Part shown: piece by piece, positions 14,965-51,904 of the stretch
Position numbering within the stretch: the first letter of the stretch is position 1
Layout: each line of letters starts with the position of its first letter
Source: Chthonomonadales bacterium
GTDB taxonomy: Bacteria; Armatimonadota; Chthonomonadetes; Chthonomonadales; CAJBBX01
Length of the DNA: 64,000 bases
Direction of reading: 5' to 3'
Assembly (NCBI GenBank): GCA_035477595.1
Contig: DATIKM010000046.1
Coordinates: 19,171-83,170, forward strand
Made by a program: the position numbers and the translations under genes
The notes under the pieces: model-generated
Told to the model about the DNA's origin: nothing
The model's database searches: none
Seen by the model: only the letters and a program-made list of their open reading frames with translations

Positions 14965-15767
14965 GCATCGAGGCGCGGCTACGCGCGGTGATCGGCGCGG
15001 TGCCCTACCGGCTGGCGCTTGCGGGCGGCTGGATCGACCAGCCGTTCGTCTCGCGGCGCAACCCGGAGCCGCCGGGCTCGATGGTGGTGGTCAACCTGCG
15101 GCCCTGCCTCCGCTACATGGACCGCGCCGGGCTTGCCGCCGGCACGCGCCGGATCGCACGCGCGCTCTGGGACGGCGCAGTGCCCGCGGGTGAGCCCAGT
15201 GCGCTGGTGCGCGAGCTCTACGCGGCCGAGAACACCGGCAAGGCGGAGCCCTCCGGCTCGCAGGACATGATCGGCCTCATCTACCCCGGCATCAGCCGCC
15301 TGGACTACCGCGCCGACCATGAGAGCGGGCTCTTCCCCGCACACATCGAGACCGAGAACCGGCCGGCGGTGGTCGCCTGGCTCGAGGGCGTGCTCCACCT
15401 CCTGCCCATCTGCGCCCGGCCGGACGGCTACAACCCGCTCGGCGAGAAGCGGCTAGACCCGGCCTGGATCGCGCGCCTCGGCCGGACGGGTCGCGAATGC
15501 TTCGACGCCATCCAGGCCCGGGACGTGACGGCGCTGGGCGCCTCGCTGAACGCGTGCATGCAGTGCTGGCAGGTCATCCTGCCGCACACCGTGCACCACC
15601 CCACCCTTACGGTCGACCTCAAGGCGCTCCTCAGTGCCTACCAGGCCGAGTACCCCGGAGCGATGTACTCCGGATGCGGCGGCGGGTACCTGATCGTGGC
15701 ATCGGAGCAACCCGTGCCTGGTGCTCTCCGGATCCGCGTGCGCGCCGCCCAGGAGGGGGCCGCGTGA
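14958..15767 (+). CDS. GHMP-kinase-like protein (fucokinase / HddA-like), short, with degenerate phosphate-binding motif
   Basis: The GTG start at 14958 overlaps the gme stop (GTGGTAG). It has VPYRLALAGGWIDQPF (like the P.RI.LAGGWTD N-motif), GSQDMIG (like GWQDQ) and a C-terminal SGCGGGYLIVA (GHMP motif III). The PxGSGLGSS position reads DRAGLAAGT. Confidence 0.55.
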   Translation: MVGIEARLRAVIGAVPYRLALAGGWIDQPFVSRRNPEPPGSMVVVNLRPCLRYMDRAGLAAGTRRIARALWDGAVPAGEPSALVRELYAAENTGKAEPSGSQDMIGLIYPGISRLDYRADHESGLFPAHIETENRPAVVAWLEGVLHLLPICARPDGYNPLGEKRLDPAWIARLGRTGRECFDAIQARDVTALGASLNACMQCWQVILPHTVHHPTLTVDLKALLSAYQAEYPGAMYSGCGGGYLIVASEQPVPGALRIRVRAAQEGAA

Positions 15768-16588
15768 GCGTGGCGCTGGTCGCAGGGGCGTTCGACGACC
15801 TGCGCTCGCGCGACGTGCGGTTCCTGCAGGAGGCGGCTCGGCTCGGCGAGGTGAGCGTGCTCCTCTGGTCGGACGAGCGCGTGCGGGCTGCAACCGGCGC
15901 CCCGCCGCGCTTTGGGTACGATGAGCGGCGCTACCTCGTTGGCGCGCTCCGCTGGGTGCGGCACGCCCATCCGTACGGGGACGACCACGGACCGGACGCG
16001 CTGCCCGACATCTCCCTGGAGGTGCTGAAGCCGGACGTGTGGGTCGTACGCGCTGAGGAGGACACGCCTGGCAGACGGGCCTTCTGTCGTGCGCGCGGGG
16101 TCGCCTACCACGTCCTGGACGACGCCTGCCTTGCCGGCTTCCCGGCGCGACCGGCAGAGGCGGTATCCGAGCCCGATCGACCCCGCGTCGTCGTGACCGG
16201 CTGCTTCGACTGGTTCCACTCCGGGCACGTCCGCTTCCTGGAGGAGGCGGCGACGCACGGCGAGCTCCACGCGATCGTGGGCCATGACGCCAACATCCGC
16301 CTGCTGAAGGGCGAGGGCCACCCGCTCTTCCCGGAGGAGGAGCGCTGCTATATGGTGGACTCGGTGCGCCACGTGCACCGCGCTCACACCTCCACGGGCC
16401 ACGGGTGGATTGACGCTGCGCCCGAGATCGAGCGCCTGCGGCCGGCGTTCTACGTGGTGAACGAGGACGGCGACAGACCGGAGAAGCGGGCCTTCTGCGC
16501 CGAGCGCAGCATCGGTTACGTGGTTCTCGAGCGGGAGCCCAAGGAGGGCCTGCCCTCGCGCCGCAGCACCGATCTGCGCGGTTACTAG
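15764..16588 (+). CDS. tandem cytidylyltransferase-fold protein (TagD / RfaE-II / ECT-like); the N-terminal copy lacks HxGH
   Basis: The GTG start at 15764 overlaps the upstream TGA (GTGA). The C-terminal half has VVVTGCFDWFHSGHVRFLEEAATHGE...RSTDLR. The N-terminal half has the homologous VALVAGAFDDLRSRDVRFLQEAARLGE without HxGH. Confidence 0.7.
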   Translation: MSVALVAGAFDDLRSRDVRFLQEAARLGEVSVLLWSDERVRAATGAPPRFGYDERRYLVGALRWVRHAHPYGDDHGPDALPDISLEVLKPDVWVVRAEEDTPGRRAFCRARGVAYHVLDDACLAGFPARPAEAVSEPDRPRVVVTGCFDWFHSGHVRFLEEAATHGELHAIVGHDANIRLLKGEGHPLFPEEERCYMVDSVRHVHRAHTSTGHGWIDAAPEIERLRPAFYVVNEDGDRPEKRAFCAERSIGYVVLEREPKEGLPSRRSTDLRGY

Positions 16589-16616
16589 CGCCGCCCGCCC
16601 CGAGGAGTCCGCGCAG

Positions 16617-17882
16617 ATGGTCGATCCTGCCGCTCATCCGCTCATCCGGCTCGAGGGCGCAGTCCAGCACTACGCGTGGGGCGGCAACCGCTTCCTGCCC
16701 GACCTGCTTGGCAGGCCCAACCCTGACGGGCGGCCGTGGGCGGAGCTGTGGCTGGGGGCGCATCCGTCGGCGCCGGCTCTCGCCGTTCTGGGCGAGGGGT
16801 CGGAGCGGCTGGACCGTCTGGTTGCGGGCGACCCGCGTCGGGTGCTGGGTCCCCGCGCCGCGGCGATGCTCGACGGCCGGCTCCCCTACCTGCTCAAAGT
16901 GCTGGACGCGCGGCGGATGCTCTCCCTTCAAGCGCACCCCTCGCGCGCTCAGGCCGCCGAGGGCTGGGCTCGCGAGAACGCCGCCGGCGTGCCGCTCGAC
17001 GCACCCCAACGCTGCTACCGCGACGACAACCACAAACCCGAGGTCCACGTCGCGCTCACGGACTTCTGGATGCTTCACGGCTTCCGGCCGCTGGAGGCGG
17101 TCGCCAGCGAGATGCGGCGCACGCCCGAGGTGGGCGCGCTGATGCCGGAGTTCGGCGAGCGGCTGCGCGCGGCGCGGGGGCCAGCGGAGCGACGGTCGCT
17201 CCTGCGCGACCTTTATGCACGCGTGATGGGCATGCCGCAGGAGCGGGTGGACGCGCTCCTCGGCTCGCTGCTCGCCCGCACGCGCGCCGAGGTGGGCGAC
17301 CCGGACGCGCGGGGGCACTGGGCCCTGCGGGCCGCTGAGGAGTACGCATTGCCCGGCGGACGCCGCGATCGGGGCATCTTCTCGATCTACCTGCTGAACC
17401 TCGTCCGGCTGCGGCCAGGCGAGGGCACCTACCAGCCTGCGGGCACGCTCCACGCCTACCTCAAGGGCGCCAACGTGGAGATGATGGCCAGCTCGGACAA
17501 CGTGTTGCGCGGAGGGCTGACGCCCAAGCACGTCGACGCGCCGGAGTTGCTGCGCACCCTGGACTTTGGCGATGGCGAACCGGAAGTGCTTCGGGGAGAG
17601 CCAGCGGGCGGCGGCGAGCGCGTCTACCGCACCGCGGCTGAGGAGTTCGAGCTGAGCCGCATCGAGCTGGCGCCCGGTGCGATGCGCCACCTGCGCGCCG
17701 AGGCTGGGCCGGACTCCCTCATCGTGGTCGAGGGAGCTGCGGAGGCGCGATCCGGCGCGGTCGCCCTCCCGCTGCCCCGCGGCACTGCGCTCTTCGTGCC
17801 CCACGGGGTAGCCTACTCCCTTGGGGCGGGCAGCGCGCCTGCTGTCCTCTTCCGCGGCGCCGTGCCACTACCGCGTGCCTGA
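16617..17882 (+). CDS. manA: mannose-6-phosphate isomerase, class I
   Basis: VQHYAWGG, ELWLGAHP, LPYLLKVLDA...LSLQAHP, YRDDNHKPE and HAYLKGANVEMMASSDNVLRGGLTPKHVD are type I PMI hallmarks. Confidence 0.85.
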   Translation: MVDPAAHPLIRLEGAVQHYAWGGNRFLPDLLGRPNPDGRPWAELWLGAHPSAPALAVLGEGSERLDRLVAGDPRRVLGPRAAAMLDGRLPYLLKVLDARRMLSLQAHPSRAQAAEGWARENAAGVPLDAPQRCYRDDNHKPEVHVALTDFWMLHGFRPLEAVASEMRRTPEVGALMPEFGERLRAARGPAERRSLLRDLYARVMGMPQERVDALLGSLLARTRAEVGDPDARGHWALRAAEEYALPGGRRDRGIFSIYLLNLVRLRPGEGTYQPAGTLHAYLKGANVEMMASSDNVLRGGLTPKHVDAPELLRTLDFGDGEPEVLRGEPAGGGERVYRTAAEEFELSRIELAPGAMRHLRAEAGPDSLIVVEGAAEARSGAVALPLPRGTALFVPHGVAYSLGAGSAPAVLFRGAVPLPRA

Positions 17883-18000
17883 CCGCCGCTCGCGGAGGCC
17901 GTCATCGCGGCGGGCGACGGCAGCGACCGGGGGGGGTGGCGGACCGGCAGGAGCGGCGGCGCCGTCGCCCTTCGGCGCGAGGCGCGGGCTCGCTCCTGTC

Positions 18001-18009
18001 TGCTACAAT
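18001..18009 (+). promoter_or_regulatory. extended -10 promoter element (TGCTACAAT) upstream of the PFK gene
   Basis: TGnTACAAT lies 49 nt upstream of ATG 18058. No convincing -35 box. Confidence 0.4.
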
Positions 18010-18057
18010 GAGCGGGCGCGCAAGCCGTCGCCCGTATCTCAAGCGAACAGGGACAAG

Positions 18058-19350
18058 ATGCGCATGGCAAAGGACAGCTCAGCGCCGGGCAAGTTGGCGA
18101 TCCTTGTGGGCGGCGGACCGGCGCCCGGGATCAATGCCGTCATCGCGGGCGCGGCCCGCGAAGGTCTCCGCAACGGACTCGAGGTCATCGGCTGCCTCGA
18201 CGGGTTCAAGTGGCTCATCGCTGGCGATACGGGCCACACGATCCCGCTGACGTACGAGGTGGTGGACCGCGCGCGGCTACGCGGCGGTTCGATCCTCCGG
18301 ACCTCCCGCGAGAACCCCACGAACAACGTGACGAAGCTGGACAGCGTGATCGCCACGCTGAGGAATCTCGGCGTCACGCACCTGGTCACCATCGGCGGGG
18401 ACGACACCGCGTTCAGCGCGAGCGAGACGGCGCGCCATGCGGGCGCCGCGCTCCGCGTCGCCCACGTGCCCAAGACCATCGACAACGACTTGCCGCTTCC
18501 CGGCAACATGCCCACGTTCGGCTACAACACCGCCCGCGAGGTGGGCGGCGAGCTGGTGCGGAACCTGATGGAGGACGCGCGCACCGCCACGCGATGGTAC
18601 ATCGTGGTGGCGATGGGCCGCAGCGCGGGCCATCTGGCGCTAGGCATCGGGGTGCTCTCGGGTTCCTCGCTCACGATCATCCCGGAAGAGTTTGGCGCCG
18701 AGAAGCCAACGCTGGACGGCGTCTGCTCGGCCATCGAAGGCTCCGTGCTGAAGTCCCGCGCCATGGGCCGCGACTACGGCGTCGCCGTGGTGGCGGAGGG
18801 TGTGGCCGAGAAGATGGTGGACGAGCTGAAGGACCTCCCGATGGTGGAAGTGAAGCGGGACAAGCACGGCCACGTGCGGCTAGCCGAGGTTCCCTTCGGG
18901 CTCATCCTCAAGAAGGAGCTGCAGAAGCGCGCCGAGGCCCGGGGCGACAAGGAGGCCACCTTCGTCGACGTGACGATCGGTTACGAGCTGCGTTGCGCCG
19001 ACCCGATCGCCTTCGACGTGGAGTATGGGCAGCATCTTGGCTGGGGCGCCTCGCGCTACCTTCTCCGGCTGGGCGAGGAGGGCTGGGGAGAGACCGGCGC
19101 CCTCATCTCGGTGCAGTCTGGCGAGATCGTCCCCATACCGTTCCAGGACATCCTCGATCCCCAGACCGGCCGCACCACGGTGCGCCGCGTGAACATGAGC
19201 TCCGACGTGTACCGGAGCGCGAGGTCGGGCATGGTCCGCCTGGAGCGCGAGGACCTGGAGAGCGATAGCCGGTTGGCCCCCATCGCCGCAGCCGCGGGGC
19301 TCCCGCCCGACGAGATGCGCGCCCGGTTCGGTGGGACGCTGGGCCGCTGA
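18058..19350 (+). CDS. pfp: 6-phosphofructokinase, PPi-dependent type by signature residues
   Basis: ILVGGGPAPGINAVI, TIGGDDTAF and VPKTIDNDLP. Asp in GGDD and Lys in PKTIDND are the residues associated with PPi rather than ATP use. ATG at 18058 (MRMAKD); the track ORF extension is rejected. Confidence 0.85.
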   Translation: MRMAKDSSAPGKLAILVGGGPAPGINAVIAGAAREGLRNGLEVIGCLDGFKWLIAGDTGHTIPLTYEVVDRARLRGGSILRTSRENPTNNVTKLDSVIATLRNLGVTHLVTIGGDDTAFSASETARHAGAALRVAHVPKTIDNDLPLPGNMPTFGYNTAREVGGELVRNLMEDARTATRWYIVVAMGRSAGHLALGIGVLSGSSLTIIPEEFGAEKPTLDGVCSAIEGSVLKSRAMGRDYGVAVVAEGVAEKMVDELKDLPMVEVKRDKHGHVRLAEVPFGLILKKELQKRAEARGDKEATFVDVTIGYELRCADPIAFDVEYGQHLGWGASRYLLRLGEEGWGETGALISVQSGEIVPIPFQDILDPQTGRTTVRRVNMSSDVYRSARSGMVRLEREDLESDSRLAPIAAAAGLPPDEMRARFGGTLGR

Positions 19351-26201: not shown

Positions 26202-27566
26202 CTACTGGCCGATGCGCAGCACCGTGATGCCCGCTCGCTCCAGGCGCGAGACGTCGAGGCAGTTGCGTCCGTCGAGTACCACTGGGGTGCGCATTGCGGC
26301 GGCAACCGCGTCCCAGTCCAGGTCGCGGTACTCGGGCCACTCAGTGGCGACGATGAGCCCATCGGCGCCCGCCGCGGCCCCCACGGCCTCGTCGCAGCAG
26401 GCCACCTCCTCGCTCGCCGGGTCGTGCCGGAACCTCCCGAGGGCTACGGGGTCGTGCACCTGGACATAGGCGCCGCGGTCCAGAAGCATGGGGATCAGGT
26501 CCAGAGCGGGCGACTCACGCGCGTCGTCGGTGCCGGCCTTGAACGTGAGGCCCAGCAGCCCTACCGTGCGGCCGCGCAGGCCTTTGAGCGCATTCTGCAG
26601 GCGGTCTATCGCGTGTTGGCGCTGGCGGCGGTTGACCTCGACGGTGGCCTGAAGCAGGGGCATGGCGTAGTCGTGGTCACATCCCATCGAGATGAGTGCG
26701 CTCGTGTCCTTGGGAAAGCAACTGCCGCCCCAACCGAGGCCCGCCTGCAGGAAGCCGGGCCCGATGCGGGAGTCCAGCCCCATGCCGCGCGCGACCTCCA
26801 CCACGTCGGCACCCAGCCGCTCGCACAGCCCTGCTACTTCGTTGATGAAGCTGATCTTGGTCGCCAGGAACGCGTTCGACGCATACTTGATGAGCTCGGC
26901 GCTCTCGGGCGACGTGACGATGAGGCGCGGGAGGGCGTAGCCCTGGGGGCGGTCCAGCAGGGGTGGCGGGTCGAACGACTGCTCGAGGATCGGCCGGTAG
27001 AGCCTGTGCAGCGCATCCACCGCGTCGTCGGTCTCCGCGCCCACCACGATCCGGTCGGGGTAGAGCATGTCCGCAAGCGCTCGCCCCTCGCGGAGGAATT
27101 CCGGATTCGAGGCGCAGAGCGCCTCGCATGCGACGCCACGCTGCTGCAGCGTGCGCTCCACGACGCTACGCACGCGCCGGTTTGTGCCCACGGGAACGGT
27201 GGACTTCACCACGAGGACTACCCGCTGGCCAGGCCGCAGTGCGGCCGCCACCTCGCCGGCGGCCTCTTCCACGTAGCGCGTGTCGGCCTGGCCGTTGCGG
27301 CGGGGTGGTGTGCCGACAGCGATCATCACCATGTCGGACAGAGGCACCGGCTCGGCGGGGCCGTCGTGAAAGCTGATGCGGGAGCGCACGCTCGGATGGA
27401 CCAGCAGGTCCGACAGCCCGTGCTCGTGGATCGGGCTGCGCCCGGCGCGCAGCAGCTCCAGACGCTCCTGGCTCCTCTCGATGACTGAGACGCGATGCCC
27501 GATATAGGCCAGCGCAGCCCCGCAGTTCACACCAACGTATCCGGCGCCCACGACCGCAATGCGCAT
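26202..27566 (-). CDS. ugd: UDP-glucose/GDP-mannose dehydrogenase family, UDP-glucose 6-dehydrogenase-like
   Basis: MRIAVVGAGYVG Rossmann start at 27566, plus GLGWGGSCFPKD with the catalytic Cys block. Confidence 0.85.
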   Translation of the reverse strand: MRIAVVGAGYVGVNCGAALAYIGHRVSVIERSQERLELLRAGRSPIHEHGLSDLLVHPSVRSRISFHDGPAEPVPLSDMVMIAVGTPPRRNGQADTRYVEEAAGEVAAALRPGQRVVLVVKSTVPVGTNRRVRSVVERTLQQRGVACEALCASNPEFLREGRALADMLYPDRIVVGAETDDAVDALHRLYRPILEQSFDPPPLLDRPQGYALPRLIVTSPESAELIKYASNAFLATKISFINEVAGLCERLGADVVEVARGMGLDSRIGPGFLQAGLGWGGSCFPKDTSALISMGCDHDYAMPLLQATVEVNRRQRQHAIDRLQNALKGLRGRTVGLLGLTFKAGTDDARESPALDLIPMLLDRGAYVQVHDPVALGRFRHDPASEEVACCDEAVGAAAGADGLIVATEWPEYRDLDWDAVAAAMRTPVVLDGRNCLDVSRLERAGITVLRIGQ

Positions 27567-42428: not shown

Positions 42429-44189
42429 ATGAGACACGGCCTCAGCGCAAGCGAATCTGCGTTCTTCAGCGGAAGGCTCGGCGATCGCCTGCTGGCGGAG
42501 GGGCTCATCTCGGAGGCCCAGCTCGAGACCGCACTCGAGCGCAAGCGCCAGACTGGCGAGTTCCTGGGCGAGCTCGTCGTTGAGCTCGGCTACGCCTCCT
42601 CGCGCACCATCGGCAAGATCCTCCAAGAGGGGATCGGCATCTCCTACGTGGACCTGGCCGACGTGCAGATCGACCCCGGCGCTCTCGAGCTGGTTGCCGA
42701 GCACTACCAGAAGCGCCACCGCGTGCTCCCTTACAAGGTGGAGGACCGCCGGGTCTACGTCGCGATGTGCGACCCGCTGAACGTGATGGTGGTGGACGAT
42801 CTTCACCTCATGACGGGCTACCGTGTCGTGCCGCAGCTCGTCCTGAACACCGACATCCAAGACGCGTTCAACAGGGTCTACTCGGCGCGAAGCCAGGCGC
42901 AGGAAGTCCTCAAGGAGATCGAGGACGCGGAGGAGCCGGGGCTCGGGTCGGATATCTCGGCCGACAAGCTCGCGGACCTGGCCGAGGACGCGCCCATCAT
43001 ACGCCTCACGAACTCGATCATCGCGGGCGGCGTGGCGTGCGGTGCGAGCGACATCCACATTGAGCCTCAGGAGCGCGCCGTGCGCGTGCGGTACCGCATG
43101 GACGGCGTGCTCTACGAGCAGATGACGATCCCGCCGCACCACTACGCCGCGGTCTGTTCGCGCATCAAGATCATGGCGCACCTGAACATCGCGGAGCGGC
43201 GCAGGCCGCAGGACGGCCGCATCGTCTTCAAGGCCCAGAACGCAGCCTACGATCTCCGCGTCTCCACGATGCCCACCATCTACGGCGAGAAGGTCGTGAT
43301 GCGCGTGCTCGACAAGTCCGGCATCACGGTGCCCCTCGAAAGGCTGGGGTTTGGCTCCGAGCAACTCGCGCTCTACGAGACCTTCATCACGCGTCCCTAC
43401 GGGATGGTTCTGGTGACCGGACCGACGGGCTCCGGAAAGTCGACCACGCTCTATGCGTCGCTGAACAAGATCAACGATGTGGCGCTGAACATCATCACCG
43501 TGGAGGATCCGGTCGAGTACAACCTGGCGGGCATCAGCCAGATGCAGGCCAACCCCAGGATCGGCCTTACCTTCGCCACCGGCCTGCGCACCATCGTGCG
43601 CCAGGACCCGGACGTCATCATGGTCGGCGAGATACGAGACGCGGAGACGGCCGAGATCGCGGTGCAGGCAGCCCTGACCGGTCACCTCGTGTTCAGCACG
43701 CTCCACACGAACGATGCGCCTGGAGCCGTCGTCCGGCTGCAGAACATGGGAGTGGAGCCATTCCTCATCGTGTCGGCGCTCATCGGCGTGGTTGGCCAGC
43801 GCCTGCTCCGCCGCAACTGCGTTTCGTGCGCCGAGGCCGACACGCCGAACCCGGCCCTCCTGCGGTCGTTGGGCATATCGCCGGAGATGGCGGAGACCGC
43901 GCAGTACAAGCGCGGCCTGGGCTGCCCGAAGTGCTCGGGGCGAGGGTACCGGGGCCGGTCCGCTGCCTACGAGGTCATGCGCGTCTCGGACCGCCTCCGC
44001 GAAGCGGTCCTCCGCAACGTGGGCGGGTCCGCGCTCAAGGAGATCGCGATGGCGGATGGCATGACCACGATGCGGGAGTCCGGCATACGCAAGGTGCTGC
44101 AAGGGGAGACCACACCGGAGGAGGTCTGCCGGGTGCTCCTGAGCGAGGAGTTCGGCGAGGGCGGTCTGCCGCAGGCGCGCGCTGCCTGA
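42429..44189 (+). CDS. pilB: type IV pilus assembly ATPase PilB (GspE family)
   Basis: MshEN-like N-domain (LLAEGLISEAQLETALERKRQTGEFLGELVVELGY), Walker A VTGPTGSGKSTT, VEDPVEY, IMVGEIRD, a tetracysteine motif CVSC...CPKC. In-frame GTG at 42369 is an alternative start. Confidence 0.9.
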   Translation: MRHGLSASESAFFSGRLGDRLLAEGLISEAQLETALERKRQTGEFLGELVVELGYASSRTIGKILQEGIGISYVDLADVQIDPGALELVAEHYQKRHRVLPYKVEDRRVYVAMCDPLNVMVVDDLHLMTGYRVVPQLVLNTDIQDAFNRVYSARSQAQEVLKEIEDAEEPGLGSDISADKLADLAEDAPIIRLTNSIIAGGVACGASDIHIEPQERAVRVRYRMDGVLYEQMTIPPHHYAAVCSRIKIMAHLNIAERRRPQDGRIVFKAQNAAYDLRVSTMPTIYGEKVVMRVLDKSGITVPLERLGFGSEQLALYETFITRPYGMVLVTGPTGSGKSTTLYASLNKINDVALNIITVEDPVEYNLAGISQMQANPRIGLTFATGLRTIVRQDPDVIMVGEIRDAETAEIAVQAALTGHLVFSTLHTNDAPGAVVRLQNMGVEPFLIVSALIGVVGQRLLRRNCVSCAEADTPNPALLRSLGISPEMAETAQYKRGLGCPKCSGRGYRGRSAAYEVMRVSDRLREAVLRNVGGSALKEIAMADGMTTMRESGIRKVLQGETTPEEVCRVLLSEEFGEGGLPQARAA

Positions 44190-44319
44190 ATCGCTCATTG
44201 CCTGCATACGAAACGCCTTTTGCTCTCAAAGCTGACCCGCGCGCGTGGAACTGATCTACTGACGGACCGACGCTTGAGCCACGGCCCGCCGACCTGGCGC
44301 TGGCCGGGAGAGATACGCC

Positions 44320-45534
44320 ATGCCGAACTACCAGTACTGGGCGCGTGACCGATCCGGGCGCTCGGTCGCCGGAGCCCTGGCCGCACCCGACGAGCAGTCC
44401 CTTCGCGAGCAGCTCAGGCGCAAGGAGCTCTTCGTCACGCGCATCGCGGCGCAACGGCAGACCTCGGTGCAGAGCGGCGGCCTGTTCTCCAAGCGCAAGG
44501 TCAGCCTGAACGACATGGTGGTGATGAGCCGCCAGCTCGCCACGCTGGTCCGAGCGGGCCTGCCGCTCGTGCAATGTCTCGATGCTCTGGTTGGCCAGAC
44601 GCAGAACCAGACGCTGAAGGAGGCGCTCACGGACATTCGCAACGAGGTGCTTGCGGGCGCGACCTTCAGCACCGCGCTCGGACGGCACTCACACATCTTC
44701 TCCGAGCTCTACCAGGCGCTTGCCCAGGCCGGCGAGATGGCCGGCGCACTCGACGAGACGCTGCAGACAGCCGCCGAGCAGCTCGACAAGGAGCAGCAGC
44801 TACGCGAGAAGGTGAAGTCCGCATTCGTCTACCCGATCGCCGTCATGGTGACCGCGGCGGGCGTGGTGGCCTTCATGCTCACCGTCGTGGTGCCGGTGTT
44901 CACCAAGGTGTACGGCCAGTTCGACGCGCAGCTCCCCGGCCCGACGATGCTGCTGGTTGTGTTGAGCAACGTAATCACCGGCTACTGGTACATCGTGCTG
45001 GCGGCCCTCTTCGGCCTCGTGAAGGCGTTCCGTTGGTGGGGGCGCACGGCAAACGGCAAGAGCGCCCTGGACCGCGTGAAACTCGGTATGCCGCTTCTGG
45101 GGCCTCTGAACCGCAAGATCGCCATCTCGCGCCTGACGCGGACGCTGAGCGCCATGCTGCAGGCGGGCGTGCCTATCCTCTCCGGGCTGCAGACCTCAGC
45201 GCGAGTCACGGGGAACACGGTCTTCACCGACGTGGTCGCCGACACGCTGCAGAAGGTGAACCAGGGTGCACGTCTCTCGGCGCCGCTCGAGGAGTCGGGC
45301 CAGTTCCCGTCCATGGTGACCCACATGATCGCCGCTGGCGAGGAGTCCGGCAACATGGATGAGATGCTCAATCAGGTATGCGAGTTCTACGACCGCGACA
45401 TCGACTACGCGGTGGAGCGGCTGACGCGCATGCTGGAGCCGCTGTTGACGATCGTGCTCGGGGTCATCGTCGGGTTCATCCTGATGGCGCTCTACATGCC
45501 GATATTCAGCATGTCCAAGGTGGTTCAGCGCTAG
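44320..45534 (+). CDS. pilC: type IV pilus / T2SS platform protein PilC (GspF family)
   Basis: 404 aa with two GspF repeats (FSRQLATLVRAGLPL..., LSRLTRTLSAMLQAGVPIL) and three TM regions. GGGAGAG SD. Confidence 0.9.
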   Translation: MPNYQYWARDRSGRSVAGALAAPDEQSLREQLRRKELFVTRIAAQRQTSVQSGGLFSKRKVSLNDMVVMSRQLATLVRAGLPLVQCLDALVGQTQNQTLKEALTDIRNEVLAGATFSTALGRHSHIFSELYQALAQAGEMAGALDETLQTAAEQLDKEQQLREKVKSAFVYPIAVMVTAAGVVAFMLTVVVPVFTKVYGQFDAQLPGPTMLLVVLSNVITGYWYIVLAALFGLVKAFRWWGRTANGKSALDRVKLGMPLLGPLNRKIAISRLTRTLSAMLQAGVPILSGLQTSARVTGNTVFTDVVADTLQKVNQGARLSAPLEESGQFPSMVTHMIAAGEESGNMDEMLNQVCEFYDRDIDYAVERLTRMLEPLLTIVLGVIVGFILMALYMPIFSMSKVVQR

Positions 45535-45664
45535 ACAGTGTGCACGGTAGCGGGATGCCTGCAGGCGTTTGCGGTCAGTGGCCCGCCGATTTGTGGAACA
45601 AACCGCTGTCCACGACGGGAGCGATGGCGTCCGGCTTGGCCGGTGGAAGGGGCAGGTGACAACG

Positions 45665-46084
45665 ATGGCGATCGGTAGGCGGTTCATACGAGGAAGAGCC
45701 GGGGCGTTCACCCTCGTCGAGCTGCTCGTGGTGATCCTCATCCTGTCGGTACTCATGGCGATCGTGCTGCCCCTGTATCTGGGGACGATCGGAAATGCCG
45801 AGCGCAGGACATGCAGGGCCAACATGCAGACGATCGCCAACGCTCAACAGGCCCACAAGGTCTGGAGCCCCACGCACGAGTACACCGAGGATCTGCAGGA
45901 GATCTACATCAACACGGGCGACCGGCCCATGTGCCCGGTCAACGGCGGCGACGCCTACAGCGTCGAGATATCGGACGGGTCCGCGCTGAGCCTCAGCGGC
46001 AGACCGGTACCGGCGGGAGGACTCGTCGTCAGGTGCAACCATCCCGACCACGGCGTGTTCGCGCCTGGGTTGGACATCGAGTAG
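45665..46084 (+). CDS. type IV pilin-like protein (prepilin N-terminal cleavage/methylation domain), atypical cleavage site
   Basis: MAIGRRFIRGRAGAFTLVELLVVILILSVLMAI. Paralog of 46251..46646. Confidence 0.8.
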   Translation: MAIGRRFIRGRAGAFTLVELLVVILILSVLMAIVLPLYLGTIGNAERRTCRANMQTIANAQQAHKVWSPTHEYTEDLQEIYINTGDRPMCPVNGGDAYSVEISDGSALSLSGRPVPAGGLVVRCNHPDHGVFAPGLDIE

Positions 46085-46250
46085 ACCGCTCGGCGACAGG
46101 CTGCCCCCCTACGACTACCGCAAAAATGCTGTTCAGGTAGACGGTGAAGGTGTGGAACAAGGCGCCAGAGGGTCTCGCGGGAGACCGCAGGGGACCCAGG
46201 CGGCGACGGGGCAGCCGGAGCCGAGACGCAACCACGGAGAGAGGACTCAC

Positions 46251-46646
46251 ATGACTTCGTTCAGAATCCGCAGCCGGAAGCGCAAGGGCTTCACGCTCAT
46301 CGAGCTTCTCGTCGTCATCCTGATCCTGGCGATCCTGATGGCGGTGGCGTTGCCGCTCTACCTCGGCGCAATCGCCGACTCCGAGAAGCGCACCTGCGGC
46401 GCCAACATGCAGACCATCGTGAACGCCGCCCAAGCCTTCAAGGTTCGAGACCCGGCACGCGACTATCCGGACACCATCGCGGCGCTGGTTGCCGGCGTGG
46501 GAGGCGTGACAGACCTGACCGTGACCCCAACGTGCCCGGATGCAGGGGTTTACTCGTGGGACCCCGACACGGCCACCGTCAGCTGCACTGTGCATGGCAG
46601 TTTCACTGCGGGACATGCCGACATGGTCCCGCACGGAGGGCCCTAG
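46251..46646 (+). CDS. type IV pilin-like protein (prepilin N-terminal cleavage/methylation domain)
   Basis: [32 protein letters not shown] has the canonical G/FTLIE site. GGAGAGAGGA SD. Confidence 0.85.
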   Translation: MTSFRIRSRKRKGFTLIELLVVILILAILMAVALPLYLGAIADSEKRTCGANMQTIVNAAQAFKVRDPARDYPDTIAALVAGVGGVTDLTVTPTCPDAGVYSWDPDTATVSCTVHGSFTAGHADMVPHGGP

Positions 46647-46676
46647 TCGCCCCCTGGACAGCCGGCAGCCCTCATC

Positions 46677-46709
46677 AGGACGGCGCTCCCACCCGCGGAG
46701 CGCCGTCCT
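46677..46709 (+). terminator. strong hairpin downstream of the pilin genes
   Basis: Perfect 13-bp stem AGGACGGCGCTCC / GGAGCGCCGTCCT with a 7-nt loop, 31 nt after the pilin stop. The following T-run is weak (TT). Confidence 0.5.
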
Positions 46710-46797
46710 TCCGCGTGCGGCAGGAACCGCCGCGCAGCGTGTGCAACCTGCCGCCTGAGGCCCCCAGGGGCCATCGGACAAGGAGCTGCCCGCACCG

Positions 46798-47634
46798 ATG
46801 CTCGTCTGGGCTTGCATCGCGCCCCATGGCGGAGAGCTGATACCCGATCTCGCGGATGGCGACCTCGCCCGCATGCAGGTGACCCGGCGGGGCATGGAAG
46901 GCCTCGGCGCGAGGTGCCTGGCGGCGCGGCCCCAGACCCTCGTCGTCCTGACCCCACACGGCATCGAGGTGGAGAACCATATTGCGGTCGCCTTCGCCGA
47001 GACCGCGCTGGGTGAGCTGGACGGTCCGGCGGGCCGCGGGGTGTCGGCGGCCTTCCCGGTGGACCTCGAGCTGGCGGCCGCACTCGTCCAGGCGGTGTCG
47101 GAGCGCTCGGTTCCAGTCGCGCCTCTGGTGCTGACCACTGCCGAGGGCAGACCGCTCCCGATCTTTCCGCTAGACTTCGGCGCCCTTGTGCCTCTCTGGT
47201 TCCTCGGTGCGCGCTGGCTCGAGCCGCCCGCCATCGTCGTGGTGACGGCGGCGCGCTCGCTGCCCCGCCGCCAGCTCGTGGCCGCGGGCGAGGCGGTGGT
47301 CGAGGCCGCCGTCCGCTCAGGTCGGCGGGTCGCCATCGTCTGCAGCGCCGACCTGGGCCATGGCCACCGCGCGGACGGGCCCTACGGCTTCTCGCCGACC
47401 TCCGCGACCCACGACCGCGCCTTCTGCAGCGCCATTCGGGAGAACGCGCTGCACCGATTGCTCCGCTGGCGCGGCGACTGGGTCGAGTCCGCAATGCCCG
47501 ACGGTTTCTGGTCCTCTCTCGTCCTCCACGGAGCGCTCCGGGCGACACCGCTGCAGCCGGAGCTGGTCTCCTACGAGGCGCCGACCTACTTCGGGATGGC
47601 CTGCGCGGCGTTCGAGCCGCCCCCGATCCCCTGA
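46798..47634 (+). CDS. class III extradiol dioxygenase subunit B (LigB) / MEMO-like family protein
   Basis: [12 protein letters not shown] near the N-terminus and [10 protein letters not shown] later recall the His-containing metal motifs of LigB/Memo-type proteins. The family call is tentative. Confidence 0.5.
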
Positions 47635-47698
47635 GGTATAATCTGCCCGGCCAGGCCGGTGCCACGTCCGAGGCCGGCTATGAGCGCGGAGGTCGCGC

Positions 47699-48262
47699 AT
47701 GCGGCGCATTGAGATGGCGCTGCCCGGTGTCGTGGTCTTCGAGCCGGTGGTCCACGAGGACGCGCGCGGCTGGTTCGCCGAGACCTACCGGGCCTCGCTG
47801 CTGGCCGAGTGGGGCATCCACGACCGCTTCGTGCAGGACAACCACTCCTTCTCGCGCGGTGGCGTCGTGCGCGGGCTCCACTACCAGCTTCGCCGGCCGC
47901 AGTCGAAGCTCTGCCGCGTCGTGCGCGGCGAAGTCCTGGACGTGGCGGTCGATATCCGCAGAGGCTCGCCCACGTTCGGGCGCTGGACGGCCGTGCGCCT
48001 CTCCGCCGACAACATGCGCCACATGTACCTCCCGCCTGGTTACGCCCACGGATTCGCCGTGCTCTCCGATGGCGCCGACATGCTCTACAAGTGTGGCGAC
48101 TACTACGACGCCGCAGATGCGCGCGGGATCGCCTGGAACGACCCGGGCATCGGCGTCGACTGGGAGGTGTGCGGGCCGCCCACCGTCTCGGAGGCGGACG
48201 CGCGCTGGCCGCGCCTTGCCGACGCGCGCCCGGAGGACCTCCCGGCCTACGGCGATGCGTGA
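47699..48262 (+). CDS. rfbC: NDP-4-keto-sugar 3,5-epimerase, RmlC-like cupin
   Basis: [68 protein letters not shown] and [15 protein letters not shown]. Confidence 0.85.
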
Positions 48263-48764
48263 GCGCGGCAGGGCGGCCTCCGAGAAGGTGGTAAGCCGGG
48301 AGGACCTCGGCAGGGCCGTCGCCGGCGCGCGCGCCGGAGGGCGCCGCATCGTCTTCACGAACGGCTGCTTCGACATCCTGCACATCGGCCACGTGCGCTA
48401 TCTGGCGGACGCCAGGGCGCTCGGCGATCTCCTCGTGGTGGGGCTCAACAGCGACGCCTCGGTGCGCCGCCTGAAGGGCGAGCGGCGCCCTCTCGTCCCC
48501 CAGGACGAGCGCGCCGAGATGCTGGCGCACCTTGCCTCCGTCGACCTCGTATGCATCTTCGAGGAGGACCGGCCCGACGACCTCATCCGGATCGTCCGGC
48601 CGGACGTGCACGCCAAGGGCGGCGACTACCGCGCCGACGAGCTCCCCGAAGCGCCGCTGGTTCGGAGCCTGGGGGGTCAGGTAGCCATCGTGCCGCTCGT
48701 GGAGGGGCGCTCGACCACACTCATCGTCAACCGCATCGTGAGCCTCTACGGGGCGGAAGGCTAG
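48255..48764 (+). CDS. hldC: D-glycero-beta-D-manno-heptose 1-phosphate adenylyltransferase (RfaE domain II as a separate protein)
   Basis: ATG at 48255 overlaps the rmlC-like stop by 8 nt (ATGCGTGA). [48 protein letters not shown]...VHAKGGDY...GRSTT. Confidence 0.85.
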
Positions 48765-49720
48765 TGTCACGCCACCCGGAGTTCGACGCCCGCCGCATCC
48801 GCACGCAGCCGTTCTGCGAGCGCGGGTCGAAGGTGCGGGTCGCCGACTTCGCGTCTCCTCCCGAGCCCGGCCGCACGGTGGACGCGTTCCTCGCCTCGCT
48901 GCCTCGCATCCTGAGCGGGCCCGCCATCTCCGAGATCGCCACGGCGGTGGTCGAGGCTCGACGCGCCGGTCGCGCCGTGCTGGCCTCCATGGGGGGGCAC
49001 GTGGTGAAGACCGGCATGGGCCGCGTCCTTGCCGAGCTCATCGAGCGCGGGGCCCTGACGGCCTGCGCGGTGAACGGCGCCTTCGCCATCCACGATGCCG
49101 AGATCGCGCTCTTCGGGGAGACCTCCGAGGATGTGGAGGAGGGACTGCGAACGGGGCTCTTCGGCATGGCGGAGGAGACTGCCCAGTGCCTGAACGAGGG
49201 CGCACGCATCGCGAGCGCGCGCGGCATGGGCCTCGGCGAAGCGCTTGGCGAGATGCTGGCAGGCGCTCCCCACGCGGAAGCGAGCGTCCTCGCCTCTGCG
49301 CACCGCGCCGGCATCCCGCTCACGGTGCACGTGGCAATGGGCACGGACGTCGTGCACATGCATCCGGAGGCCAGCGGCGCGGCGATCGGCGAGGCATCGC
49401 TGCGGGACTTCCGCATCCTCACCCACGCCATGGAGGGCCTGGCGAACGGCGGCGTCCTGATGAACCTGGGCTCAGCGGTCGTGCTGCCCGAAGTCCTCCT
49501 CAAGGCGATCGCCACGCTCCGCAACGTGCGCGGCGACGCGTTCTCGCGGTTCCTCGGCGTCAACCTGGACTTCATCCAGCACTACCGGTCCAACCAGCAG
49601 GTGGTGAGCCGGGTCCGCGGCATCGGCGGCCGCGGCATTGCCCTGACGGGTCACCATGAGGTGCTGATCCCTCTCGTCGCGCAGGCGATCGTCGATCGTT
49701 GGGAGGCGCCGACGCGATGA
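48764..49720 (+). CDS. deoxyhypusine-synthase-like (DS family, NAD-fold) protein of unknown function
   Basis: The GTG start shares one base with the hldC TAG stop (TAGTG). By-eye collinearity with DHS: LASMGGHVVKTGMGRVLAELIERGALTACAVNGAFAIHD, IPLTVHVAMGTD, NLGSAVVLPE, QVVSRVRG. From memory only; no HMM run. Confidence 0.45.
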   Translation: MSRHPEFDARRIRTQPFCERGSKVRVADFASPPEPGRTVDAFLASLPRILSGPAISEIATAVVEARRAGRAVLASMGGHVVKTGMGRVLAELIERGALTACAVNGAFAIHDAEIALFGETSEDVEEGLRTGLFGMAEETAQCLNEGARIASARGMGLGEALGEMLAGAPHAEASVLASAHRAGIPLTVHVAMGTDVVHMHPEASGAAIGEASLRDFRILTHAMEGLANGGVLMNLGSAVVLPEVLLKAIATLRNVRGDAFSRFLGVNLDFIQHYRSNQQVVSRVRGIGGRGIALTGHHEVLIPLVAQAIVDRWEAPTR

Positions 49721-50694
49721 CCCCGGTCCGCCTTCGCGAGATCGTCGGCGCGTTCGCCGGCGCGCGAGTTCTGTGCGTCGGCGACCTGATGATGGACGAG
49801 TACGTCTGGGGCCGCGCCACCCGCATCTCGCCGGAGTCGCCGGTGATGGTGGTCGAGGTGGACCGCGAGACGAGCGTTCCAGGCGGGGCAGCCAACGTGG
49901 TGCACAACCTGCTGGCGCTCGGCGCTGCGGTGGCGGTCGCCGGCGTAGTGGGCGACGACGCGGCGGGCGCGGCGCTCCGAGCGCGGCTCGGCGAGGAAGG
50001 CGCGGACGTGTCCGGCGTCCTCGCCGACCCAGGCCGGCCCACCACGCGGAAGACGCGCGTCGTGGCGCACCACCAGCAGGTGCTCCGCGTGGACCGCGAG
50101 CGCGCAGCGCCGCTGCAGCCGGAGGTTCGCCGGCGCCTGGAGGAGGAGATCGAGGGCCTCGCGCGCGAGGCGGACGCCATCGTGGTGTCGGACTACGACA
50201 AGGGCGTCGTCTGCGCTTCGACGGCCGCCGTGGCGGTGGAGGCGGGCAGGCGGCGCGGCGCGCCAGTCACCGCGAACGCGAAGCCGCGCAACGCGCAACG
50301 CTTCGCCGGGGCGTCGCTCGTGTCGCTGAACGCAGCCGAGGCCGACGCCGTCGCGGGCGCCTCCGCGTTCTCGGCTGGCGAGGGGCTGGAGGAGGCGGGA
50401 CGCGCGCTCCGCGAGATTCTCGGCATCGATGCGCTCGTGGTGACGCGAGGCGCGGACGGGATTGCGCTCTGGGAGGCCGACGGCGTCTGCCGGCGCGTGC
50501 CCGCGCACCCGGTGGAGGTCTACGACGTGGCGGGAGCGGGCGACACCGTCATCAGCGTGCTGACGCTCGGCCTCGCACGGTCCGTCCATCTGGTCGAGGC
50601 CGCTGAGGTGGCTTCGCTCGCGGCTGCGGCCGTGGTGCGCAAGGTCGGCGTTGCGGTGGTCACCGCTCGGGAGCTCCTCGGCGCGGACGGATAG
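49717..50694 (+). CDS. hldA: D-glycero-beta-D-manno-heptose-7-phosphate kinase (RfaE domain I as a separate protein)
   Basis: ATG at 49717 overlaps the upstream TGA (ATGA). VLCVGDLMMDEYVWGRATRISPESPVMVV, GGAANVVHNLLALGA, TRKTRVVAHHQQVLRVDRE and DVAGAGDT (ribokinase-fold motif). Confidence 0.85.
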   Translation: MTPVRLREIVGAFAGARVLCVGDLMMDEYVWGRATRISPESPVMVVEVDRETSVPGGAANVVHNLLALGAAVAVAGVVGDDAAGAALRARLGEEGADVSGVLADPGRPTTRKTRVVAHHQQVLRVDRERAAPLQPEVRRRLEEEIEGLAREADAIVVSDYDKGVVCASTAAVAVEAGRRRGAPVTANAKPRNAQRFAGASLVSLNAAEADAVAGASAFSAGEGLEEAGRALREILGIDALVVTRGADGIALWEADGVCRRVPAHPVEVYDVAGAGDTVISVLTLGLARSVHLVEAAEVASLAAAAVVRKVGVAVVTARELLGADG

Positions 50695-50716
50695 CTGTGT
50701 TGTCCCAATGGGCTCG

Positions 50717-51904
50717 CTAGCGCGAGGCCGACTCTGGGGATGCCGTCGCCGGCGGCGCCGCGCGCGGGATGAACTGCGTGGCCGCGAGGGAAACGAGGGC
50801 CACCCCGATGCCGATGGCGAAGGGGATGCGGTAGTCGCCCGTGAGGCTCCAGAGCATGCCGCCCGTCACGGGCACGAGCACGGCTGCCACGTGGTTCATC
50901 GTGGTGCCCATGGCGAGGCTGGGTGTCAGCTCGGCCTTGTCCGCGATGCGGTTGAGGTAGGTGGTGATTGCCACGCCGAAGCCGAAGAGCAGGTTGTCCA
51001 GTGCGAACAGGGCGTACAGCATGCTCACGTCGCGCGTGGTGGCGTAGCCCCAGAAGACGCCCACGATCGCCACGTAGTATACGGTGAGCATGCGTCGCTC
51101 GCCCAGGCGGTCCACCATGCGGCCGATCATGGGCACGCACACCGCCGACACGGCGGCGTTCAGCAGCGCGAGGTTCAGCATCGTCGTTACGTCGGCGCCG
51201 TAGACGGCGATCAGGACGAAGGAGGCGAAGGTGCCGAACACCTGCCGCCGGCAGCCTTCGAGGAACGTCAGGCCGTAGTAGAGGCCGTAGCGCCTGCGGA
51301 ACACGATGGGCCGCCGCTCTACACCCGACGCCCGATCCGAGAGGCGGAAGGCCAGCCAGCTCGCCACCATGATCATGGCGCCCGACAGAGCGAACAGCGC
51401 CTCGTAGGAGGCAAACGGCTTAACCGCGCGCGTAAAGAGAAGGGCCGTGAGGACCGCCAGGGCACCGACGCCCGCCATCCTGCCCAGGTGCCGTCCGCCC
51501 TCCTGGTGGCGCGCCAGCGAGAGGGTGATGGCCGCCTGCACCGACGACCACAGGTGGAAGCCGGTCGACCAGAGCACGCTGAGACCGACCAGAGCCCAGT
51601 AGCTCGGCGCCAGGCCCGTGGCCGCCATGCCGACGGCGCAGAGGCCGAGCGCCACGCCGGCCAGGCGGGCCTCCGCGAGCGCGACAAGCGTGCCGGCGAG
51701 CAGTGCCGTGAGGAGGCCAGGCGTCTCGCGGAGCGACTCCAGTATCCCGAGTTGCTCTGGGCCGCCGTGCATCACCTCGCGGAAGAAGTTATGGAAGATG
51801 CCGTTGTAGACCGCGAACCCGAAGCTGAAGCAGAAGACGAGGACCGTGAACACTCGCCAGTCGCGCCGGGCGCCCGCCTCGTCGAGAGCTTCGTGCGGGG
51901 TCAT
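50717..51904 (-). CDS. MFS transporter
   Basis: ATG at 51904 (MTPHEALDE...). Multi-TM pattern with GRMVDRLGERRMLTVYY (MFS motif A). Confidence 0.75.
   Translation of the reverse strand: MTPHEALDEAGARRDWRVFTVLVFCFSFGFAVYNGIFHNFFREVMHGGPEQLGILESLRETPGLLTALLAGTLVALAEARLAGVALGLCAVGMAATGLAPSYWALVGLSVLWSTGFHLWSSVQAAITLSLARHQEGGRHLGRMAGVGALAVLTALLFTRAVKPFASYEALFALSGAMIMVASWLAFRLSDRASGVERRPIVFRRRYGLYYGLTFLEGCRRQVFGTFASFVLIAVYGADVTTMLNLALLNAAVSAVCVPMIGRMVDRLGERRMLTVYYVAIVGVFWGYATTRDVSMLYALFALDNLLFGFGVAITTYLNRIADKAELTPSLAMGTTMNHVAAVLVPVTGGMLWSLTGDYRIPFAIGIGVALVSLAATQFIPRAAPPATASPESASR

Follow-up and report, generated by a model that had tools for sequence, protein, structure and literature searches.

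In the textbooks, ADP-heptose synthesis takes four or five enzymes and is regarded as closed. The pathway is a target for antibiotic adjuvants, and its product ADP-heptose is the signal that the human receptor ALPK1 recognises. The locus described here raises the question of whether this set of enzymes is the same in all bacteria. In a stretch of 64,000 nucleotides from a Chthonomonadales bacterium of the phylum Armatimonadota (GenBank contig DATIKM010000046.1; hereafter, the window), the heptose genes hldC and hldA are separated by a gene coding for a protein of 318 residues (48764..49720), which we call X, and are preceded by the rhamnose gene rmlC. Two points have to be addressed, that is, what X does between the two heptose genes and whether RmlC takes part in the same chemistry. 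According to the data reported below, X is very probably a fifth, uncharacterised enzyme that belongs integrally to ADP-heptose synthesis in many phyla outside Proteobacteria, and RmlC, though co-transcribed with the heptose genes, probably stands outside the heptose chemistry.

The rmlC-hldC-X-hldA Operon

The four genes are co-directional and occupy positions 47699-50694 of the window, as follows:

47699..48262, + strand: rmlC, 187 residues (TIGR01221, 228 bits, cut-off 155.8; PF00908, E 2e-66)
48255..48764, + strand: hldC (TIGR02199, 202 bits, cut-off 181.5; PF01467 matched as well)
48762..48766, + strand: hldC/X junction TAGTG, a one-base overlap of the hldC stop codon with the GTG start of X
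48764..49720, + strand: X, GSU2086-family gene, 318 residues, GTG start (NF052581, 357 bits, cut-off 250)
49717..50694, + strand: hldA (TIGR02198, 320 bits, cut-off 345; PF00294, E 5e-41)

Reading of the sequence revealed that stop and start codons overlap at each junction: the ATG of hldC, at 48255, lies inside the end of rmlC (ATGCGTGA at 48255-48262), the hldC stop codon TAG (48762-48764) shares its last base with the GTG of X at 48764, and the stop of X and the start of hldA form the ATGA at 49717-49720. The GTG start of X is backed by the aligned N-termini of its homologues (MSRYPEFD...). HldA scores slightly below the TIGR02198 cut-off, yet this is by far its best match, the next family (ribokinase) reaching 66 bits. 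An earlier note on this DNA had described the same four overlapping genes; all its coordinates hold, and the scans with the Pfam and NCBIfam hidden Markov models agree with its naming of RmlC, HldC, and HldA.

Codon overlaps of this kind are normal in operons; what goes beyond chance here is the conserved gene order and not the overlaps. The identical order of four genes was found in a relative whose X is 83% identical to that of the window (loci L083 and L084), and the order hldC-X-hldA in a second one with 68% identity (L088). A scan of positions 46600-51200 for promoters and terminators found nothing, such a scan being uninformative at the guanine plus cytosine content of the window (71%).

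The earlier note had also reported that gmhA, gmhB, rmlA, rmlB, and rmlD are missing from the window, and this is borne out by the searches with E. coli queries. GmhA, GmhB, HldD, RmlA, and RmlD retrieved nothing convincing from the six-frame open reading frames (ORFs) of the window, and the sole match of RmlB was weak (E 4.7e-6), corresponding to a short-chain dehydrogenase/reductase (SDR) gene at 13921-14964. The genome must carry its gmhA and gmhB beyond the window. The four genes are one operon, composed of one ordinary rhamnose gene, rmlC, and three nucleotide-heptose genes, hldC, X, and hldA.

Sequence and Structure of X

X is a full-length member of NF052581, the "GSU2086 family protein" (residues 6-307 align with profile positions 1-300 of 301), a family of uncharacterised function whose invariant residues it carries. 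Its sequence is 100% identical to that of a hypothetical protein from a Chthonomonadales metagenome-assembled genome. In Pfam, it matches PF21570 only, and just in part (30.8 bits, cut-off 27; residues 57-120 on positions 2-65 of 213). No match to PF01916, the deoxyhypusine synthase (DHS) family, was reported in the Pfam scan, and neither the Pfam nor the NCBIfam scan gave a match to an SDR family or to TIGR02197 (HldD). The score of X is 18 bits with the DHS model NF002630 (cut-off 364) and 27 bits with TIGR00300, the model of the nickel-pincer ornithine cyclodeaminase (OCD; cut-off 411).

The AlphaFold2 (AF2) model of X (pLDDT 87.7, pTM 0.84) was compared with the PDB using Foldseek, which retrieved only the LOR/SDH protein 3C2Q, DHSs, and the C-terminal domain of AgrE/ArgZ, with TM values of 0.5-0.6, identities of 12-17%, and E values between 1e-8 and 1e-6. 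Moreover, residues 56-121 in the profile of the X family align with the Rossmann segment of the ArgZ/AgrE C-terminal domain, the motifs G-x-x-V-I-x-T-G and A-I-H-D-x-E being common to both. This likeness of fold, together with DHS and OCD scores far below the cut-offs, suggests that X represents a separate family inside the DHS/OCD superfamily, being itself neither a DHS nor an OCD; the model scores rule out that it is a true member of either. The earlier note had called the middle protein deoxyhypusine-synthase-like, with an NAD-type fold: the description suits the fold, as recovered by Foldseek, but not the family, although some sources do label members of the X family "deoxyhypusine synthase".

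The nearest structural neighbours of X are DHS (PF01916) and the LOR/SDH-type OCD or ArgZ/AgrE C-terminal domain (TIGR00300, PF21570). Like them, X has an N-terminal dinucleotide-binding segment and the HD-x-E motif. Unlike X, with which they share so little identity and which obtains 18-31 bits from their models (far below the cut-offs in the case of the DHS and OCD models), the known DHS/OCD members use amine substrates (spermidine, ornithine), whereas the genomic context of X, apart from housekeeping genes, is exclusively sugar and lipopolysaccharide (LPS) related.

The alignment of 299 sequences from several phyla revealed that 61 out of the 318 positions of X are at least 98% conserved. 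The invariant residues include seven histidines (79, 110, 189, 198, 200, 297, and 298), a set of acidic residues (D111, E113, E122, D195, D215, E243, D269, and E299), and six basic ones (R20, K23, K82, K247, R275, and R283). According to the AF2 model and the alignment, each of the six predicted parallel beta-strands carries invariant residues at its C-terminal end, where in the model the usual cofactor and active-site crevice would be. Two copies of X occur in tandem in three single polypeptides (P0244, P0327, and P0372), which is consistent with X being a dimer and fits the obligate dimer of DHS.

Distribution and Genomic Context of X

The X family comprises at least 5984 clusters at 90% identity (E <= 1e-5); among the representatives of the clusters at 50% identity, 461 were retrieved at E <= 1e-30 and 1524 at E <= 1e-10. 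A genome scan confirmed X in at least 590 species, and the family spans at least eight phyla, its members being found in Armatimonadota, Nitrospirota, Acidobacteriota, Thermodesulfobacteriota, Chloroflexota, NC10, Planctomycetota, KSB1, Eisenbacteria, and others; a search for viral copies retrieved none. The literature searched contains no functional study of the GSU2086 family, GSU2086 being mentioned in a Geobacter transposon sequencing (Tn-seq) table alone, and nothing that connects heptose with either a DHS-like protein or a nickel-pincer cofactor.

The neighbourhood of X was analysed in 80 loci from other species, 73 of which had enough upstream sequence, while 67 formed the base for the counts of downstream genes and fusions. 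The commonest arrangement has a GmhA-type SIS isomerase directly upstream of X on the same strand (28/73). HldA, HldC, or HldE is either fused to X or encoded at position +1 or +2 in 14 of the 67 loci, and 47 out of the 80 have one or more heptose genes no farther than four genes from X. The locus of Geobacter sulfurreducens is arranged as GT2-gmhA-GSU2086-hldE-gmhB-rmlA-small cupin-mreCD, with gmhA, gmhB, and rmlA above the equivalog cut-offs. A locus from Nitrospirota (L060) reads lpxA-X-hldE ... lpxK::gmhB, one from Armatimonadota (L090) waaA-lpxK-lpxL-GT9-GT9-GT2-...-X-hldA, and in a third (L008) an X::hldC fusion is followed by a gene for a KdsB-like cytidylyltransferase (PF02348). In Armatimonadota, X is paired with hldA or hldC, and gmhA is located elsewhere. 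GmhB is rarely close to X, this being the case only in L060 and in Geobacter, and no HldD-like protein was found among the neighbours of the 80 loci; the single SDR among them (L049) is GalE-like (196 bits with galE vs. 119 with heptose_epim, whose cut-off is 275). The split hldC/hldA layout of the window is no local oddity; X is widely associated with the whole set of ADP-heptose genes, and this layout is one of the forms that the association takes.

In the Tn-seq experiment with Geobacter grown on electrodes, the fitness values were -3.2 for GSU2086, -3.1 for hldE, and -3.7 for gmhA (PMC5585712); neither of the strings "hldD" and "6-epimerase" occurs among the entries listed in the Geobacter supplementary tables.

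The fused gene of L060 (18393-20153) codes for an LpxK::GmhB protein of 586 residues, joining a lipid A kinase to a heptose bisphosphate phosphatase. Two distant X paralogues (38-42% identity) are encoded by plasmids, one from Solidesulfovibrio carbinolicus (pDCAR1; L091) and the other from a member of Chloroflexota (L092). The former belongs to a trio HldC::PfkB-X-SIS, flanked by three radical SAM genes, split transketolase genes, and nonulosonic-acid genes; the latter to a module HAD-X-PfkB-SIS, beside sugar ABC-transporter and catabolic genes, with no recognisable nucleotidyltransferase. The pairing of X with an SIS protein may extend to sugars other than the LPS heptose.

Gene Fusions Involving X

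Natural fusions were read among the 50%-identity cluster representatives. HldC is the most frequent partner (at least seven representatives), following X in P0108, P0241, P0248, and P0268 and preceding it in P0300 and P0332. The others join X to GmhA (GmhA-X, P0262), to an SIS domain (X-SIS, P0364), to HldA (X-HldA, P0361), to HldA and HldC at once (X-HldA-HldC, P0315), or to a GmhB-like hydrolase of the HAD type (HAD-X, P0334); HldE is also found fused to X. No X-SDR fusion was present among the fusion proteins found. A further triple fusion of 826 residues, P0321, combines a DUF89 phosphatase, HldC, and X; its DUF89 domain, similar to the "damage-control phosphatases", may do the work of GmhB in that organism, dephosphorylating heptose 1,7-bisphosphate.

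The window genes hldA and hldC correspond to the two domains of the bifunctional heptose 7-phosphate kinase/heptose 1-phosphate adenylyltransferase HldE (RfaE), split into separate genes. As in HldE, the two domains can share one polypeptide with each other in the presence of X, namely in the triple fusion P0315; unlike in HldE, the order in the window is reversed, with hldC first, and X stands between the two. The reversed layout hldC-X-hldA is conserved in the nearest Chthonomonadales (L083, L084, and L088), and does not represent a disrupted hldE. The inserted gene is a real and conserved partner of hldC and hldA, as the earlier note had supposed, both in these relatives and in the wider set of loci and fusions.

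In principle, X might have no catalytic part in heptose synthesis, being instead a regulator, a scaffold, a nucleotide sensor, or an enzyme of an unrelated (polyamine- or hypusine-like) pathway that happens to reside in envelope operons. This would account for the 33 loci out of 80 with no heptose gene within four genes of X, as well as for the "deoxyhypusine synthase" labels; the other recurrent neighbours of X are housekeeping genes (uvrA, mfd, and ksgA), of which uvrA and mfd are found in those 33 loci. However, the clustered neighbours of the 80 loci include no recurrent polyamine or translation-factor genes, and the DHS model gives X the very low score reported above. Moreover, X is fused to five different heptose enzymes, and its 61 near-invariant positions, rich in His, Asp, Glu, Lys, and Arg, lie at strand ends. 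We consider such a non-catalytic or unrelated role most improbable.

Possible Role of X in ADP-Heptose Biosynthesis

If X is an integral enzyme of the pathway, it remains to be asked which step it might catalyse. Since it occurs in operons and fusions with GmhA, HldA, GmhB, and HldC, X replaces none of them. GmhA, HldA, and HldC are each adjacent or fused to X. As for GmhB, the Geobacter operon contains an equivalog gmhB, the lpxK::gmhB gene of L060 is located 8 kb from X, and the HAD-X and DUF89-HldC-X fusions were described above. HldD is the one canonical activity of ADP-L,D-heptose synthesis for which no gene was found beside X.

HldD (RfaD/GmhD), the ADP-L-glycero-D-manno-heptose 6-epimerase, is an SDR with a tightly bound NADP. 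Its reaction is redox-neutral and involves a keto intermediate, formed transiently with the help of a nicotinamide cofactor that stays bound. This is also the style of chemistry of the superfamily of X, whose characterised members have a tightly bound NAD-type cofactor and perform a transient oxidation followed by re-reduction. The absence of HldD beside X and the HldD-style chemistry lead us to propose X as a non-orthologous heptose epimerase. A positional analogy exists as well, in that X of Geobacter lies inside gmhA-X-hldE-gmhB and hldD of Helicobacter inside gmhA-hldE-hldD-gmhB (PMC10269868). Unlike HldD, with its SDR-type Rossmann fold, X has a DHS-like fold and no sequence similarity to HldD; given that no SDR or TIGR02197 match was obtained, X could be a functional analogue of HldD at most, and not a member of its family.

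According to this proposal, X would have kept the dinucleotide-binding core of the DHS and LOR/SDH-OCD superfamily and would use a tightly bound NAD-type cofactor, whose chemistry would be helped by the invariant His/Asp/Glu cluster, while the six invariant Arg/Lys residues could hold phosphates. It would epimerise a heptose with no net redox change, most simply at C6 (from D-glycero to L-glycero), thereby doing the job of the SDR enzyme HldD. The substrate might be ADP-D,D-heptose, which would fit the many HldC fusions, or heptose 7-phosphate directly after GmhA, which would fit the dominant gmhA-X adjacency and the module of plasmid L092. The data above show to which family and fold class X belongs, as well as its synteny and its fusions; cofactor, substrate, and reaction are what we infer here, by elimination and by analogy of fold. 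That X is specifically a C6 heptose epimerase replacing HldD is possible but doubtful; the explanation as a whole, in which an rmlC gene is joined to a heptose operon and X is a heptose enzyme acting as an HldD-like epimerase, is the best one available and we hold it tentatively, somewhat short of an even chance. An oxidation- or epimerisation-type step supplied by X, as suggested in the earlier note, is plausible.

Several observations weigh against an HldD-like epimerase. X is accompanied most constantly by GmhA and not by HldC. That no HldD was found near X counts for little, since GmhB is seldom found there either. The HAD-X-PfkB-SIS module of L092 favours a sugar phosphate over ADP-heptose as the substrate. 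The Tn-seq phenotype of GSU2086 is possibly polar, since in Geobacter this gene lies upstream of hldE. Moreover, the characterised DHS and OCD enzymes oxidise C-N bonds, not C-OH bonds. Finally, a plain NAD epimerase would not usually have as many as seven invariant histidines, which could point to a metal site or to a different chemistry; HldD is not known to have such a His-rich invariant set.

The constancy of GmhA suggests a different placement, in which X would epimerise or otherwise convert the product or the substrate of GmhA (heptose 7-phosphate or sedoheptulose 7-phosphate) before the kinase acts, possibly in a complex with GmhA. Besides the 28 loci with gmhA directly upstream, this agrees with the fusions GmhA-X and X-SIS, with the SIS partner kept by both plasmid paralogues (in L092 inside a module with no recognisable nucleotidyltransferase), and with the six invariant Arg/Lys residues, which suit a phosphosugar or a bisphosphate. 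On the other hand, the HldC fusions are the most numerous, X of Armatimonadota pairs with hldA or hldC and not with gmhA, the canonical pathway requires no additional step between GmhA and HldA, and the plasmid paralogues are distant enough for their function to have diverged. A conversion at the sugar-phosphate level is, on balance, unlikely, though it deserves to be taken seriously.

The histidines, in turn, might be related to a nickel-pincer cofactor (NPAD/NPN) or to another metal centre in place of plain NAD(P), with which X, like its distant relative, the LOR/SDH-type OCD, would be cofactor-loaded and would epimerise or isomerise heptose through a hydride shuttle. The nickel-pincer sites of LarA are rich in His and Lys, and X possesses, beside its seven invariant histidines, two invariant lysines that can be counted in favour of such a site. 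Furthermore, TIGR00300, which X matches weakly, is named [quoted passage not shown] by NCBIfam, the A-I-H-D-x-E motif is common to X and the OCD domain, and a passage of PMC13524815, citing Desguin 2025, has OCD binding a nickel-pincer adenine dinucleotide non-covalently. Nevertheless, the TIGR00300 match amounts to just 27 bits, the 80 loci have no recurrent larB/larC/larE-like family among their clustered neighbours, and AgrE was crystallised with NAD+ (PDB 6LRG). A nickel-pincer or other metal-dependent X is improbable.

Returning to X as a heptose epimerase, a bolder version can be formulated, in which X would found a new epimerase class on the DHS/OCD scaffold, acting on sugar nucleotides or sugar phosphates and possibly using NPAD or a His-bound metal together with nicotinamide. 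We regard this as quite unlikely; if true, L,D-heptose or a new isomer would be made in much of the bacterial tree by a chemistry unrelated to HldD, in Acidobacteriota, Nitrospirota, Thermodesulfobacteriota, Armatimonadota, and others. Already as a fifth conserved enzyme, X would imply that the ADP-heptose pathway is incompletely understood outside Proteobacteria, the locus of the window being a further example of an ADP-heptose gene set that varies in a conserved but unexplained way. Its reaction, once known, would correct thousands of annotations as "hypothetical" or "deoxyhypusine synthase", would tell which heptose stereoisomer the phyla harboring X use in their envelopes, and would possibly widen the chemistry of the DHS/OCD superfamily from amines to sugars.

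RmlC and the Rhamnose Genes

The RmlC of the window is at equivalog level for the dTDP-rhamnose enzyme, its TIGR01221 score being well above the cut-off. When compared with solved true RmlCs, it obtained 163-189 bits (1RTV, 186.5; 1EP0, 183; 1DZR, 163), vs. 68-82 bits with the GDP-heptose 3- and 3,5-epimerases of Campylobacter (8DCL, 8DAK, 7M14, and 8DCO). Judging from its sequence, the protein is an orthodox dTDP-4-dehydrorhamnose 3,5-epimerase.

The operons of related Chthonomonadales show where such an enzyme comes from. In L088, the order is galE-rmlA-small cupin-rmlB-hldC-X-hldA-ubiA-rmlD, with rmlA, rmlB, and rmlD above the equivalog cut-offs; L001 has rmlB-X-hldA and L089 X-hldA-ubiA-rmlD. 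The interleaving of rml genes in these relatives indicates that the heptose module of Chthonomonadales is embedded in a rhamnose operon, of which the window keeps rmlC alone beside the module. RmlC was found within four genes of X in none of the 80 loci of other species, the single match (L022) being seven genes away.

These data bear on the proposal, put forward in the earlier note, that RmlC and X jointly make a C3/C5-epimerised or otherwise modified heptose, with X providing the C4 oxidation as in the Campylobacter capsule. Three facts speak for it: rmlC and hldC are translationally coupled both in the window and in the 83%-identical relative, the Geobacter operon ends with rmlA and a small cupin weakly matching PF00908, and X has an oxidoreductase-type fold. 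Nevertheless, the scores place RmlC with the rhamnose enzymes and far from the GDP-heptose epimerases, RmlC is not a regular neighbour of X in the 80 loci, and X is conserved beside plain LPS-core genes. In addition, the co-occurrence with rmlA, rmlB, and rmlD, which the note itself had named beforehand as speaking against its idea, is observed in the same operons of the related Chthonomonadales. A role of RmlC in heptose modification is hardly credible, and the tie between X and RmlC has to be abandoned with it.

The comparison with the Campylobacter jejuni locus leads in the same direction. Capsule heptose modification relies there on the C4-dehydrogenase Cj1427, cupin epimerases of the Cj1430 type, and the reductase Cj1428; like that locus, the window unites a cupin epimerase, an NAD-type enzyme, and heptose-nucleotide genes. 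However, the Campylobacter enzymes act on GDP-alpha-heptose produced by HddA and HddC, whereas the cupin of the window is an orthodox RmlC and no reductase is present. The association of RmlC with heptose genes seen in the window is confined to Chthonomonadales, where complete rml operons explain the presence of RmlC.

Two further features of these operons were observed. A UbiA-family gene, not found in the window, lies between hldA and rmlD in L088 (9991-10941) and L089 (10098-11024); it scores as a decaprenyl-phosphate phosphoribosyltransferase (238 bits, cut-off 207), a hint that the same glycan pathway may involve a sugar linked to polyprenyl phosphate. Small cupins of 152-162 residues are encoded directly after rmlA in the GSU2082 region of Geobacter (L086, 13984-14472) and in L088 (5851-6309). 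They match PF00908, weakly in Geobacter, that of L088 also giving a weak FdtA match, and have no match in NCBIfam; from these profiles, they appear to be atypical RmlC-like proteins.

Other Sugar and Envelope Genes in the Window

Directly upstream of the operon, positions 42429-47634 (+ strand) harbor type IV pilus genes, coding for a PilB-like ATPase and a PilC-like platform protein, with two prepilin-like ORFs recognised by eye. After the pilus genes comes a gene resembling LigB-family dioxygenases (46798-47634). The 83%-identical relative has the same arrangement, its genes being labelled T2SSE, T2SSF, N_methyl, and LigB by Pfam. A UDP-glucose/GDP-mannose dehydrogenase gene is located at 26202-27530 (- strand), about 20 kb upstream of the operon, whereas in the close relative L083 a gene of the same family (12006-13286) lies directly after hldA; the different placement of this gene suggests that envelope-sugar genes have been locally rearranged between the two genomes.

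A second sugar-nucleotide cluster, also with overlapping gene ends, occupies positions 13921-19350 (+ strand) of the window and may represent an uncharacterised route to a mannose-derived nucleotide sugar. It includes the SDR gene retrieved by the RmlB query and is composed as follows:

13921-14964, + strand: SDR epimerase/reductase; best NCBIfam match GDP-L-fucose synthase, far below the cut-off
14958-15767, + strand: protein of 269 residues with no Pfam or NCBIfam match
15764-16588, + strand: protein of 274 residues with two HldC-like cytidylyltransferase stretches
16617-17882, + strand: type I phosphomannose isomerase
18259-19350, + strand: phosphofructokinase

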